64,000 nt of DNA. Origin: a virus. Lineage: Duplodnaviria > Caudoviricetes. The stretch is taken from IMG/VR virus record IMGVR_UViG_3300011008_000999; one strand, given 5' to 3'. Each line of letters starts with the position of its first letter. Position 1 is the first letter of the stretch. The position numbers and the translations under genes were made by a program. Shown here one piece after another: positions 23,667 to 63,656 of this stretch. Under the pieces are notes generated by a model. The model was not told the origin of the DNA and did not search any database. It saw nothing but the letters and a program-made list of their open reading frames with translations.

Positions 23667-25154
23667 TTATGACTTAGTCTCTGCATAAAACATTTTTCTA
23701 AGAGTTACTGCATCTCTAGGAAGTAAGTCTCTCTTTTCAGCAGTATTCTCATTATAGAGCTTCTTACAAAATTCATAGAACTTAAGCGCAAGCTCATCTT
23801 CAATAAGGTCTTCTCTCTTGTACTTTCCATACTTAAGAGTTCCCTGCGCAATAGATCTCATAAACTTCCAGAATTTATAGAATGCAAGCTTAACCTTAAC
23901 CATATAACCATCAGCAGCTTCTACTACAAATCCTTCGATCTGACGACCTTCGTATAAGTAATCATTTGCAGTAACAGTTTTGTACCAATCTACAAATTCT
24001 TCGTAAGTATCAATTACACACGCCTTAGTCTTATACTTAAGACCAAGATCCTTTGCTATATCTACAAGCTGCTCATAAGGAAGCTGTTCAAAGTCCATCT
24101 TATTCTTAATAATTGCTATCAAGAAAAGCTGATTTTCAGCATAATCAATAATGTGAGGATCATTCTTCATATCTACATTTTCAAAGACAAAAGTAACATT
24201 CTCATTTTTAGAGAAGTTTTTCATCTTTTCAATGTTTTCAGAAGTCATATTTCTCTCAATTGCTTCTCTTAACCATACTGAGAAATCACCTTCAGGTGAA
24301 GACTTAGTAGTAACAAAAAGATCATCAGTCTCTTCATTATATGAAGCAAGACCAAGATAACCATTTTCCTTTACATAGCAAGTTACAGGAAACTTCATAG
24401 TCTTAAGGTTACCAAGCTGAGTAGATTCCATTTCACCGATATTAAAGAACTTATTAAAACCACGCGCAACGATCTTACCTAACTTAGTGTTAATGTAAAG
24501 ACCTCTTGCAACTATAGTCTGATTATCCCATACACCAGAATAGAAAGCTTCTCTAGTAAAGTTAAATGATGAGATATTTCCATAAGACTTTTCAGCCACA
24601 CAAGGATTAGATCTCATATTGTCAATAACTTCATCTATATCATCAAGCTTTACTTCTGATTTAACAGTAGAAATCTTATCAAATTCTTCAGGCTTAATAA
24701 CCTTTACATATGAAGGAACTTCACACTGTTCAAAGTTATGATACATTCTATCAATAACTTCTTCAGGAACACGTCTAAATGCTTCACGAGATGCATTTCT
24801 TCTCTTGCACTCTTCAATAGGAAGATCAGTGAAATCAATCACAAATGCATGATAATTGTATCTCTCAACAAGTGACTTATAAGAGTTAATTTCTCTAGTA
24901 GTTGAGTGAGTTGCGTCTATAATAGTATAAAGACCAAATGACATACGAAGTTCAAGTAACTGATTAAGATACTTGAATACCTTGCCATTATATTCCTGAG
25001 AAATTTCAGATACTTCAGTAGAACCTGAATAAGAGTACATAAACTGAAGTCTAAGATCATCAGTTGAAATGGTATAAGGTTCTAACTTGTTGTTCTTTAT
25101 GAAAGTTGATTTTCCGCAACCAGGTGCACCACGAAGAATTATTAATGATCTCAT
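23667..25154 (-). CDS. Polynucleotide kinase - RNA ligase (T4 Rnl1-like) fusion
   Basis: N-terminal GAPGCGKS P-loop and IIDATH; C-terminal ARGFNKFFN, KENG (motif I), EGFVV, KVK. Confidence 0.88.
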   Translation of the reverse strand: MRSLIILRGAPGCGKSTFIKNNKLEPYTISTDDLRLQFMYSYSGSTEVSEISQEYNGKVFKYLNQLLELRMSFGLYTIIDATHSTTREINSYKSLVERYNYHAFVIDFTDLPIEECKRRNASREAFRRVPEEVIDRMYHNFEQCEVPSYVKVIKPEEFDKISTVKSEVKLDDIDEVIDNMRSNPCVAEKSYGNISSFNFTREAFYSGVWDNQTIVARGLYINTKLGKIVARGFNKFFNIGEMESTQLGNLKTMKFPVTCYVKENGYLGLASYNEETDDLFVTTKSSPEGDFSVWLREAIERNMTSENIEKMKNFSKNENVTFVFENVDMKNDPHIIDYAENQLFLIAIIKNKMDFEQLPYEQLVDIAKDLGLKYKTKACVIDTYEEFVDWYKTVTANDYLYEGRQIEGFVVEAADGYMVKVKLAFYKFWKFMRSIAQGTLKYGKYKREDLIEDELALKFYEFCKKLYNENTAEKRDLLPRDAVTLRKMFYAETKS

Positions 25155-47774: not shown

Positions 47775-47890
47775 TAGAGCGAGTTGGATTCGAACCAACG
47801 ATTGGCTGTTTCCCTTGAATTAGGTAGCGGTTAAAATCACAAAAATGATTCATTTTTATGACAGCTGCCTTCCCACTTGGCTATCGCTCT
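47775..47890 (-). ncRNA. tRNA-like RNA with a 51-nt anticodon loop carrying the shared 25-nt motif
   Basis: Acceptor AGAGCGA/TCGCTCT, D arm GCC..GGC, stem GCTGT/ACAGC, T arm GTTGG-TTCGAAT-CCAAC. Confidence 0.8.
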
Positions 47891-60610: not shown

Positions 60611-60770
60611 TCCTACGATAGTGCACCTAACAGAAGATGTAGCATTTACCGGCGCTCAACCTTTACTGTGCTATGAACGACTTTGCTCCAAGTTGAGCCG
60701 AGGCGGCTGGAACCATGAAACAAAACTTGTAGAATCCAAAATGAATAAAATGACAAATCACTTTGGAAAG

Positions 60771-61129
60771 TGGAGATGAGGGGAATCGAACCCCTGTCCG
60801 AAATACTTACTCAGAGCTTTCTACACGTTTATCTTGCTTTTAATAAGTTATCTAACCATCTAAACAGGCGAACTGATTAGCAACTAACTATTGTGGTCTT
60901 ATGTATGAATACTTTTGTCATCCTCTTCATACAGCAGCGATCATCTTTGGCCATAAGAGATACGACCGCAATACTCTTATGACTTAACTCTCCGAAGAGA
61001 GGTTGCTGCGATTAGGCAGCTGCGTAACCGTAGTTAGCGTTTATTGTTTGGTGTCGGATTCAAGAGGTGTCCACCATCCTCTACGTGCTTTTCTCGTTGC
61101 TTGTACCCCGTCGAAACCTTTACATCCCC
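60771..61129 (-). ncRNA. ssrA: tmRNA
   Basis: 5-prime GGGGATGTAAAGGTTTCGAC, 3-prime GGGGTTCGATTCCCCTCATCTCCA, tag frame ANYGYAAA* at 61012-61038. Confidence 0.95.
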
Positions 61130-61206: not shown

Positions 61207-61446
61207 TTATTCTACAATATAATCTTTAATTGCTTCCTTAAATGTGTCAAAAGCAGTACCATCTTCAGTGTGAACACGAAGTTCGATAGGCTTAGAAAGA
61301 TCGAGCGAAAAAATACCCATAATAGACTTAGCGTCAATAACATATCTGCTGCTTACAAGATCAGCATCAAAAATCTGCTTAGTCATTATATTAACGAATC
61401 CTTTTACTTTCTCAATTGAATTGAGAGATATTACTGTAGTAAACAT
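61207..61446 (-). CDS. HPr-like phosphocarrier protein lacking the His15 motif
   Basis: DAKSIMGIFSL (Ser46 region) present, GLHARP absent. Confidence 0.85.
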   Translation of the reverse strand: MFTTVISLNSIEKVKGFVNIMTKQIFDADLVSSRYVIDAKSIMGIFSLDLSKPIELRVHTEDGTAFDTFKEAIKDYIVE

Positions 61447-61520
61447 ATTACTGCCTCCTTAAGTGTAAATAGTTAGTACGACGACTAACTATTTTAAAAC
61501 GAACTATGTTAATTGTAAAA

Positions 61521-61666
61521 GACCACTCCTAAGGTTGCAACTAGAGGCATCATCACCGCTTATAAAGTGTCTATGAATAAATCTAGAATCATCATAGGCA
61601 AGCAATATAAGGAAGGTACTTCTTACAGCCGCTAAACTGTTGTAATTCCTCTACTTAAGAGTGGTC
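61521..61666 (-). ncRNA. Rod-shaped small RNA with central bubble (6S-like candidate)
   Basis: GACCACTCTTAAG/CTTAGGAGTGGTC, TAGAGG/CCTCTA, CTTATA/TATAAG, CTATGA/TCATAG. Confidence 0.55.
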
Positions 61667-61669
61667 AAA

Positions 61670-61804
61670 TAGAGATGGTAGGAATCGAACCTACAATTCT
61701 ACACTATATACACATACATTCGACTTACTAGTATATCAAATATATGTTTTTGATGTATATAGAACGAGATCACATCCGGCGTCTTCCTATTCCGCCACAT
61801 CTCT
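61670..61804 (-). ncRNA. tRNA-like RNA (Leu-type D arm) with long insertion replacing the anticodon arm
   Basis: AGAGATG/CATCTCT, GCG-GAATAGGAAGA-CGC, GTAGG-TTCGATT-CCTAC, inner CTATATACA/TGTATATAG. Confidence 0.7.
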
Positions 61805-61808
61805 AAAC

Positions 61809-61900
61809 TAGTCAGATAAGTTTCGAACTTATGTCTCCCTACGTCTAGGTTGTTTTGACCAAGGATTTACTTTTTGGCACCTTATCTAAACTACTGACTA
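61809..61900 (-). ncRNA. tRNA-like RNA with D-loop insertion and shortened anticodon arm
   Basis: TAGTCAG/CTGACTA, GTTT..AAAC, CCTA-GACG-TAGG, ATAAG-TTCGAAA-CTTAT. Confidence 0.65.
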
Positions 61901-61903
61901 ATA

Positions 61904-62052
61904 ATCCGAGGTAGGATTCCATTATGGCCCCTTTGATACGCATGCTTTTATCATACTCACCATAACCGCCACCTACATGTTCTGCAGGTTCGTCTGCTAC
62001 GTCTTTCGTCCTTATTCGAATTCGGACTTGTTAGTGATTAAACGACTCGGAC
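61904..62052 (-). ncRNA. tRNA-like RNA with hairpin insertions in both D loop and T loop
   Basis: TCCGAG/CTCGGA, GTTT..AGAC with GTCC/GGAC inside, GCAG/CTGC, GTAGG..CCTAC with TTATGGT/GCCATAA inside. Confidence 0.6.
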
Positions 62053-62054
62053 AA

Positions 62055-62127
62055 TGGAACCGAAGAGATTTGAACTCTCGACCCCCTGCTTGCAAGGCAG
62101 GTGCTCTCCCAACTGAGCTACGGCCCA
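62055..62127 (-). tRNA. tRNA-Ala(TGC)
   Basis: CCTGC-CT TGC AA-GCAGG; G3:U70. Confidence 0.92.
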
Positions 62128-63009: not shown

Positions 63010-63132
63010 GAAGGATGGTAGGACTCGAACCTACAGTGTACCGGCTCCCTAAGCATTAGAATTTTGGTTGCTGTCTTTATCACGAAAATGATAGTGTCAA
63101 AACGGCGCGTCTGCCAATTCCGCCACATCCTT
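63010..63132 (-). ncRNA. tRNA-like RNA with 48-nt motif-bearing insertion in the anticodon stem
   Basis: AAGGATG/CATCCTT, GCG-GAATTGGCAGA-CGC, GTAGG-TTCGAGT-CCTAC; motif at 63068-63092. Confidence 0.8.
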
Positions 63133-63303: not shown

Positions 63304-63417
63304 TTGCAGGAAATGGAATCGAACCATTGTCTCGTCCTATATGTGTGGAATATAAGATAGCTGTTAAAATCACGAAAATGATTCATTTTACGCGCTCTAC
63401 CACTAAGCTATCCTGCG
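63304..63417 (-). ncRNA. tRNA-like RNA with motif-bearing insertion and initiator-like C1:A72 acceptor
   Basis: CGCAGGA/TCCTGCA, GCTT..GAGC, AATGG-TTCGATT-CCATT; motif at 63358-63382. Confidence 0.8.
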
Positions 63418-63532: not shown

Positions 63533-63656
63533 ACATGGTGGAAGGATTCGAACCTTCGACGACTTTAAATTGTGCATAATCTAAAGTTTGTATGTAGCAA
63601 CCCACTTAAGAAATCTACTTGATGCACCAAATAGAATTTCCGCAGCTACCACCACG
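63533..63656 (-). ncRNA. tRNA-like RNA with elongated D and anticodon arms
   Basis: CGTGGTG/CACCATG, GTAGC/GCTAC, ACTTTA/TAAAGT, GAAGG-TTCGAAT-CCTTC; first unit after the promoter at 63667. Confidence 0.65.

Follow-up and report, generated by a model that had tools for sequence, protein, structure and literature searches.

Three tRNA-shaped RNA genes without an anticodon loop at the downstream end of a phage tRNA array

We describe three genes for tRNA-shaped RNAs, here called E1, E2, and E3, that lie in tandem at the downstream end of the main tRNA array of a large uncultivated phage (Duplodnaviria; Caudoviricetes) and that lack a 7-nt anticodon loop. The phage is known as IMG/VR virus record IMGVR_UViG_3300011008_000999, which is 331,944 bp long with direct terminal repeats, and the stretch analyzed here (the window) is 64,000 nt of its reverse strand. 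A sequence-only reading of the window had proposed three tRNA mimics between positions 61,670 and 62,052, and all three were found there; their placement on the minus strand, the descent of E1 from tRNA-Leu, and the precedents in phages T4 and T5 go beyond that reading. We consider it very probable that E1, E2, and E3 are functional RNAs that do not decode. On balance we favor the fuller explanation that they are three separate non-decoding tRNA-shaped RNA genes whose products mature as tRNAs do and act on a partner in trans. The three genes are as follows.

61670..61804, minus strand: E1, a 135-nt tRNA-Leu derivative (Rfam tRNA 34 bits; seven homologues)
61808..61900, minus strand: E2, a 93-nt tRNA-shaped RNA (18 distinct homologues, with covariation)
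61903..62052, minus strand: E3, a 150-nt tRNA-shaped RNA (four homologues: the window, L001, L038, and L029)

Each of the three folds into a cloverleaf with a 7-bp acceptor stem, a D stem, and a T stem, and in each the stems are supported by covariation and are under selection as RNA. Alignment of homologues, the check that the sequence-only reading had called for, revealed many pairs that have changed on both sides (18 of 25 pairs in E2, 11 of 27 in E1, and 7 in E3), which bears out its view that simple pseudogenes are unlikely. At the position of the anticodon loop there is instead a loop of 3–9 nt that varies among copies of E2, and one of 5–6 nt in both E1 and E3. Conserved G.U pairs, located in a mini-hairpin of E1, at G1.U72 of E3, and at G10.U25 of E2, would read as C.A on the opposite strand and thus support the minus strand. 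Relative to shuffled sequence, the folding z-scores of the three elements are −2.95, −2.20, and −2.62. ARAGORN in its default mode calls none of the three, and the Rfam tRNA model (RF00005) gives E1 34 bits, a weak match that passes the gathering score of 29. No Rfam family matches E2 or E3, even at E up to 10, and the cultured phages of INPHARED hold no match to E2 and match E1 only at the level of the T arm. Covariance models set each family apart from ordinary tRNAs.

E2 has the largest number of homologues. From its 5′ end it consists of a 7-bp acceptor stem, U8 and A9, a GUUU/AAAC D stem, a D loop that contains a hairpin followed by GG, a stub of 4 bp and 4 nt, a variable region of 5 nt, a T arm of canonical form, and a G discriminator; the enlarged D loop, now seen to be a 23-nt hairpin insert, and the anticodon stub had both been described correctly from the sequence. 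Copies were collected by means of an exact 19-mer from the D-loop hairpin, which was found in 3 IMG/VR and 24 metagenome contigs, 19 of which contain a true copy. The 18 distinct copies align to a single cloverleaf in which 95.1% of the cells are paired, and the covarying pairs include all seven of the acceptor stem, four of the five in the T stem, and all five of the stub. None of 500 shuffles reached the observed values, save that one of the 500 did so for the count of further pair types, and pairing fell to 31–57% in controls in which the alignment was slid. The covariance model of the family (R1) gives its members at least 77 bits and tRNAs at most 42. The D-loop module and the stub of E2 are these.

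61861..61883, minus strand: E2 module, a 23-nt hairpin (NAGG/CCUN) with the 15-nt loop UGCCAAAAAGUAAAU (18 members)
61838..61849, minus strand: E2 stub that takes the place of an anticodon arm, CCUA-GACG-UAGG (all five pairs covary)

The tertiary signals in E2 argue that it truly adopts the L shape of a tRNA. Across the copies U8 and A14 do not vary, and the 15–48 pair covaries perfectly, being G-C in nine copies and A-U in nine (that of L042 was taken from alignment column 71). The D-loop GG is missing in four copies (L014, L039, L042, and L043), and these four also lack a canonical UUC T loop. The discriminator is G in 18/18 copies although the acceptor stems vary. The module itself is situated in the D loop between positions 15–17 and G18G19, and its 19-mer is identical in all 18 copies, whereas every acceptor pair varies and the pair that closes the module covaries (AU, GC, GU, CG, and UA). 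The most conserved part of E2 is this D-loop hairpin, which is not tRNA-like and is set in surroundings that have all diverged. The loop of the stub, at 3–9 nt and with no conservation of sequence, indicates that E2 cannot decode.

Outside the phages, the E2 19-mer has five matches in prokaryote genomes, and as none of these fits the E2 model we regard them as chance. A degenerate E2 pattern that tolerated changes in the loop turned up no new members. E2 is absent from G004 and from three phages that have only E1 (G006, G007, and G008). A search of the phage's own genome for an antisense target of the loop gave matches at the level of chance. A likeness of the loop to the 530 loop of 16S rRNA, and pairing of its run of A with the anticodon of tRNA-Lys, are conceivable but are given no weight here. 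We also considered whether the loop might represent a mini-tmRNA (GCC AAA AAG UAA), which is ruled out because there is no G3.U70 pair (the 3–70 pair is GC in 13 copies, AU in 4, and CG in 1), and whether GUUU...AAAC might mimic a CRISPR repeat, which is ruled out because no collection has a locus with more than one copy of the 19-mer. A 68-nt paralogue of E2 that lacks the hairpin is present at G000:151455-151522 of this phage, outside the window, and at L001:3351-3418; its D arm is of the E2 type, a GAAA tetraloop caps its 5-bp stub, and its discriminator is G.

E1 is organized differently. Its 7-bp acceptor stem is followed by a class II D arm, then by a mini-hairpin and a long hairpin whose length varies; a 9-nt linker, which is conserved, leads to the T arm, and the discriminator is A. 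The two hairpins and the linker are these.

61763..61776, minus strand: E1 mini-hairpin, GAUG/CGUU stem with loop UG-N-CU (invariant in 7/7 copies except N)
61704..61762, minus strand: AT-rich hairpin of E1, placed where a class II Leu-like body has its variable arm (four of seven basal pairs covary)
61695..61703, minus strand: E1 linker UGUAGAAUU (invariant in 7/7 copies)

Pattern scans yielded seven distinct copies of E1, in whose alignment 99.5% of the cells are paired, and RNAalifold independently predicts the same fold. With the E1 covariance model (R2), the family scores 93–120 bits, Leu-like paralogues that bear inserts score 42–47, and tRNA-Leu genes score 30–40, from which we conclude that E1 descends from tRNA-Leu. 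It retains the class II tRNA-Leu acceptor stem, D arm, A14, A15-U48, G18G19, T loop, and A73, but differs from tRNA-Leu in having no 5-bp anticodon stem and 7-nt loop, in its hairpin of 12 to 59 nt, and in the 9-nt linker between that hairpin and the T stem. The AT-rich hairpin noticed in the sequence-only reading is therefore real, but it is not a simple replacement of the anticodon arm, as it follows the mini-hairpin at the position of the variable arm. It measures 59 nt in the window, 58 in L007, about 30 in L001 and L038, and 19 in L044, while in L019 and L045 it is reduced to 12 nt with a 4-bp stem and a GAAA tetraloop; since its base pairs covary, the hairpin is retained, with its length free to change. 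The nucleotide N of the mini-hairpin is AU in the window and A, U, or G in the homologues, and its place atop a loop of 5–6 nt makes it unlike an anticodon.

Invariant in E1 are its D arm of the Leu type, the stretch GGAUGUG-N-CUCGUU, the linker, whose last U is the position-48 partner of A15, the T loop, and the discriminator A, the last in 7/7 copies while the acceptor stems vary. In terms of single positions, U8, A14, A15, G18, G19, U48, U54, U55, C56, A58, and A73 are invariant in all seven. In Escherichia coli, A73 is crucial for leucine identity and the anticodon and long variable arm are not, leucyl-tRNA synthetase (LeuRS) requires A15-U48, G18G19, and the contacts of the D loop with the T loop, and charging persists in tRNA-Leu variants without anticodon and variable arms (PMC9976931). 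E1 conforms to these rules in A73, A15-U48, G18G19, U8-A14, and the U54-A58/G19-C56 elbow. We therefore tentatively suggest that E1 might be leucylated, and hold this short of an expectation because the same residues also serve folding. Because the LeuRS identity set of E1 is complete (rules from PMC9976931), the synthetase sponge of the sequence-only proposal is a possible role for this RNA.

E3 has a 7-bp acceptor stem with G1.U72 and a GUUU/AGAC D stem, and its D loop bears a hairpin. Next come a stub of 4 bp and a T stem of 5 bp, with an insert of two helices in the T loop; the discriminator is U. E3 thus does contain hairpins in both its D and T loops as had been noted from the sequence.

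62008..62027, minus strand: E3 D-loop hairpin, GUCC, 12-nt loop, GGAC
61921..61966, minus strand: insert in the E3 T loop, made up of one helix of 8 bp and an apical one of 5 bp (one compensated pair each)

All 37 of its pairs are intact in the four homologues, which are close relatives, and of the compensated pairs the acceptor stem accounts for three, the stub for two, and the two helices of the T-loop insert for one apiece. The stem of the D-loop hairpin is invariant among these four, so covariation is no test of it. The E3 model (R3) gives members 180–186 bits and the best other match 29; it detected no further member in 55 other loci, and a 17-mer from E3 gave 26 chance matches and no new member in IMG/VR. 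The 5′ half of E3 resembles E2 in having the same D stem and a D-loop hairpin.

That E1, E2, and E3 are separate genes follows from the occurrence of E1 and E2 apart or alone in other phages. The two are 2.2 kb apart within the array of the 467-kb phage G005, in which no match to E3 was found, and in many contigs neither E1 nor E3 accompanies E2; all three are present in synteny in a 394-kb relative (L001). The E1 copy of L019 lies 2.2 kb from the nearest tRNA behind a predicted sigma-70-type promoter that matches at 12/12 positions and ends 8 nt before E1, so that E1 is a gene in its own right.

In the window, E3, E2, and E1 form the downstream end of the main tRNA array and follow a canonical tRNA gene.

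62055..62127, minus strand: tRNA-Ala(UGC), canonical, 2 nt upstream of E3 (ARAGORN; Rfam 59.5 bits)

Measured from each discriminator base to the next acceptor stem, the order on the minus strand is tRNA-Ala, 2 nt, E3, 2 nt, E2, 3 nt, and E1. The spacing, at 2–3 nt, is tRNA-like as had been proposed. No strong promoter-like site was found between tRNA-Ala and E1, which is consistent with the earlier view of a tRNA operon and suggests that the three are probably co-transcribed with the tRNAs. The 3′ ends point the same way. The E2 copies of L014/L039, L020, L042, and L043 and the E1 copies of L007 and L044 have an encoded CCA directly after the discriminator; the canonical tRNAs of these arrays encode CCA too, and CCA is never encoded after E1 or E2 where the tRNAs of the array lack it. 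This pattern, together with the fixed discriminators, places the 3′ end under tRNA-like constraint.

We propose the following course of events. E3, E2, and E1 would be transcribed at the end of the minus-strand tRNA operon and cut at their 5′ ends by RNase P (a U is present at −1 in 13 of the 18 E2 copies), a 3′ nuclease would trim the opposite ends, and CCA would be added, for which the phage may use its own CCA-adding enzyme (G000:319341-319712). Maturation like that of tRNAs, with a CCA end, is in our judgment probable for all three. The RNAs would then fold into a tRNA-like L shape in which the tRNA body provides processing, stability, and the CCA end and carries the modules, namely the D-loop hairpin of E2 with its fixed 15-nt loop, the mini-hairpin and 9-nt linker of E1, and the D-loop and T-loop hairpins of E3. 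Away from the decoding site they would engage a partner by binding or titration, the likeliest candidate being a protein that recognizes the tRNA body; that they act on such a trans partner by means of the displayed module is a proposal we put forward with a little less than even confidence. E1 may in addition be charged with leucine even though it does not decode. A more elaborate version, which we think improbable, is a toolkit of tRNA-scaffolded effectors in which leucine-charged E1 would feed, block, or drain a process that depends on Leu-tRNA or LeuRS (by titration of LeuRS or non-ribosomal transfer of leucine) and in which E2 and E3 would be scaffolds that present hairpins.

Several observations weigh against this explanation. 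The fixed loop of E2 is in part an effect of the search, as the copies were gathered by that exact 19-mer. The support for E3 is thin because it comes from four close homologues, and the leucine identity set of E1 could be inherited and retained for folding alone. The link in CCA encoding between tRNAs and E1 or E2 is not strict, since E2 lacks CCA in L021, L026, and L029 although the tRNAs of those arrays encode it. No neighboring gene common to the E2 or E1 loci was found other than an open reading frame (ORF) similar to HPr in four E2 loci, and Pfam gave nothing for the neighbors of E1. The phage genome lacks a TROVE/Ro gene (PF05731) and aminoacyl-tRNA synthetases of PF00152, PF00587, and PF00133.

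Four alternatives have to be considered. If the partner is a defense factor, which is the one respect in which this alternative departs from the explanation favored above, E1, E2, and E3 would be decoys or sponges that soak up tRNA-attacking or tRNA-sensing enzymes of the host (nucleases of the acceptor end or elbow, or toxins) and would shield the tRNAs of the phage. Such a role would fit a phage that invests in tRNA upkeep, with about 45 tRNAs, a tmRNA, a fused polynucleotide kinase and Rnl1-type ligase, and a CCA-adding enzyme, as it would the conserved acceptor end, elbow, and discriminator and the presence of at least eight tRNA-shaped RNAs of such type in one genome. However, PrrC, PARIS, and retron-linked nucleases cleave anticodon loops. 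These loops, the target of the well-known tRNA-directed defenses, are what E1, E2, and E3 lack, which makes the anticodon-nuclease decoys of the sequence-only reading unlikely, and the freely varying acceptor stems do not match an enzyme specific for sequence. Decoys in general seem unlikely to us. The suggested T-box or RelA ligands likewise find no support, as these need codon-type pairing through an anticodon that is absent here. The RNAs might instead be charged carriers for non-ribosomal uses of aminoacyl-tRNA, E1 for instance delivering leucine to a transferase or draining LeuRS, and the full LeuRS identity set of E1 (rules from PMC9976931), the conserved discriminators, and the encoding of CCA in arrays whose tRNAs encode it would all suit such a role. 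Nevertheless, neither the neighborhood nor the genome searches performed revealed a gene for an aminoacyl-tRNA-dependent transferase or synthetase, E2 has G73 but neither G3.U70 nor a long variable arm, and E3 has no identity set that is independent of an anticodon, and we rate this possibility as rather unlikely.

There are two further alternatives. Phage tRNA arrays often duplicate, a Leu-like gene at 63010-63132 is a paralogue of E1, and the E1 hairpin is dispensable and varies in length, as might be expected if these were decaying tRNA duplicates whose shape is kept only so that the polycistron is cut correctly. This we consider very unlikely, since the strongest conservation is in the non-tRNA modules and not in the parts needed for processing, E1 stands alone with its own predicted promoter in phages with few tRNAs, several E2 contigs have no canonical tRNA within about 60–160 nt (in L033 none is called at all), and the discriminators are invariant. 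As pseudogenes, E1, E2, and E3 are rejected by covariation. Even less credible is that they are interrupted tRNA genes that yield working tRNAs once introns or inserts have been taken out, in the manner of the "enigmatic introns" reported for the tRNAs of Lak phages (PMC6784885). ARAGORN in its intron mode does read E1 as a tRNA-Leu(UAG) with a 41-nt intron, and the phage encodes a fusion of a kinase with an RNA ligase. But the short E1 copies without the insert (L019 and L045) keep a 5-nt mini-loop and have no 7-nt Leu anticodon loop, ARAGORN calls the L019 copy a tRNA-Val(GAC) in disagreement with the Leu(UAG) call here, and the "anticodon" nucleotide N is A, U, G, or AU among E1 bodies that are otherwise identical. 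Without its hairpin E2 would still have a stub with a loop of 3–9 nt, its hairpin-less paralogue carries a GAAA tetraloop, and the E2 and E3 inserts are located in D and T loops. Bacteria are not known to have a splicing endonuclease. We reject the idea that the three are intron-bearing tRNAs, as removal of the inserts restores no anticodon arm and the insert-less relatives are not normal tRNAs.

The non-decoding RNAs favored here have precedents. Stable tRNA-like RNAs in the tRNA clusters of phages T4 and T5 have been known for some fifty years with no function assigned to them, and E1, E2, and E3 are new families of this class, being like them members of a tRNA cluster on the same strand as the tRNAs. 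RNA1, RNA2, and RNA3 of T5 are annotated as "tRNA-like stable RNA with unknown functions" (NC_005859) and are likewise inside the tRNA cluster; in the folds of RNA1 and RNA2 an acceptor stem and a T arm of canonical form enclose long internal inserts, as in E1, E2, and E3, and RNA1 has a Leu-type D arm as in E1. There is, however, no sequence-family relation, with R2 giving RNA1 23 bits, a level that any tRNA reaches, and R1 and R3 giving nothing, and no D-loop insert of the E2 type or T-loop insert of the E3 type was seen in single-sequence folds of RNA1 and RNA2. In T4, rnaC and rnaD (the species 1 and 2 RNAs) are a tandem pair at the 3′ end of the tRNA cluster, as are E3, E2, and E1 here, and rnaC has a canonical T arm; their roles were still called unknown in papers of 2010 and 2022 (PMC3014915 and PMC9697503). 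Again there is no homology (R1 gives 15.6 bits on rnaC, and R2 and R3 nothing), the acceptor stem of rnaC is weak, and rnaD as folded here is not clearly tRNA-shaped.

A decoding tRNA (RF00005) has an anticodon arm with a 5-bp stem and a 7-nt loop with U33, a purine at 37, and a conserved anticodon, and E1, E2, and E3 have no such arm. The Y RNAs of the YrlA type (RF02553), which are bound by Ro60/Rsr and are found in bacteria and phages, are also non-decoding tRNA mimics with T and D arms, but they end in a Ro-binding stem rather than an acceptor stem. A Y RNA identity is excluded, as the genome carries no TROVE domain and RF02553 gives 15 bits where its cut-off is 69, and so is a tmRNA-like identity, as E2 has no G3.U70 and RF00023 gives E1 19 bits against a cut-off of 47. 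The Lak megaphages resemble this phage in having oversized tRNA-like genes in huge uncultivated phages, but those genes are read as introns in otherwise decodable tRNAs (PMC6784885), whereas excision from E1, E2, or E3 restores no anticodon loop.

The wider setting of the three genes is a phage for which no close cultured relative was found, with about 45 tRNA genes of which most are within one array. All genes of the window are on the minus strand and the GC content is about 33%. The window also contains a tmRNA gene.

60768-61129: tmRNA (basis, Rfam)

A simple scan of the genome indicates at least eight oversized tRNA-shaped genes that default ARAGORN misses. Two such RNAs, of 124 nt at 63533-63656 on the minus strand and of 131 nt at G000:154798-154928 just outside the window, combine a perfect acceptor stem of 7 bp with a canonical T arm and long internal arms, and ARAGORN calls neither. 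Three minus-strand tRNA-like genes, at 47775-47890, 63010-63132, and 63304-63417 (Rfam tRNA scores of 50, 34, and 44 bits, respectively), have anticodon-arm inserts of about 50–59 nt that share the motif AAAAUGAAUCAUUUUCGUGAUUUUAAC or a variant of it. In other contigs, L040:3640-3760 and L038:795-920 adjoin E2 or E1 and are tRNA-shaped with a Leu-type D arm and long inserts, scoring 33–44 bits under the E1 model. In its intron mode ARAGORN also predicts a tRNA-Leu(UAA) at G000:147572-148348, outside the window, with a 692-nt anticodon-loop intron that is probably group I. In the 394-kb relative there is a predicted ochre suppressor tRNA with anticodon UUA (L001:6123-6194), whose counterpart at about the same point of the array in this phage is a tRNA-Gln(UUG).

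Directly 3′ of E1 is a rod-like element of about 146 nt (61521-61666, minus strand), the ends of which pair as a 13-bp stem (GACCACUCUUAAG / CUUAGGAGUGGUC) followed by a run of U; its start is conserved in L001, and it may be the end of the tRNA operon. A small ORF (61210-61458, minus strand; about 80 aa) has a weak similarity to HPr, the phosphocarrier of the phosphotransferase system (PTS), at an E of 0.0013 that is below the Pfam cut-off, and it is kept beside tRNA-like genes in L001, L038, and the more distant contig L040. At 23667-25154, also on the minus strand, the phage encodes a 495-aa protein in which a P-loop kinase domain (AAA_33) is fused to a T4 Rnl1-type RNA ligase, the architecture of a tRNA repair enzyme.

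E2 is thus a widespread family in uncultivated phages, in which a sharply defined module is set on a tRNA body whose tertiary fold is backed by covariation, while E1 is a tRNA-Leu derivative that has given up decoding and kept the full leucine identity set. If E1, E2, and E3 are indeed effectors, the tRNA counts reported for phages would overstate their decoding capacity, and the tRNA body would be a natural scaffold for the expression of small RNAs.

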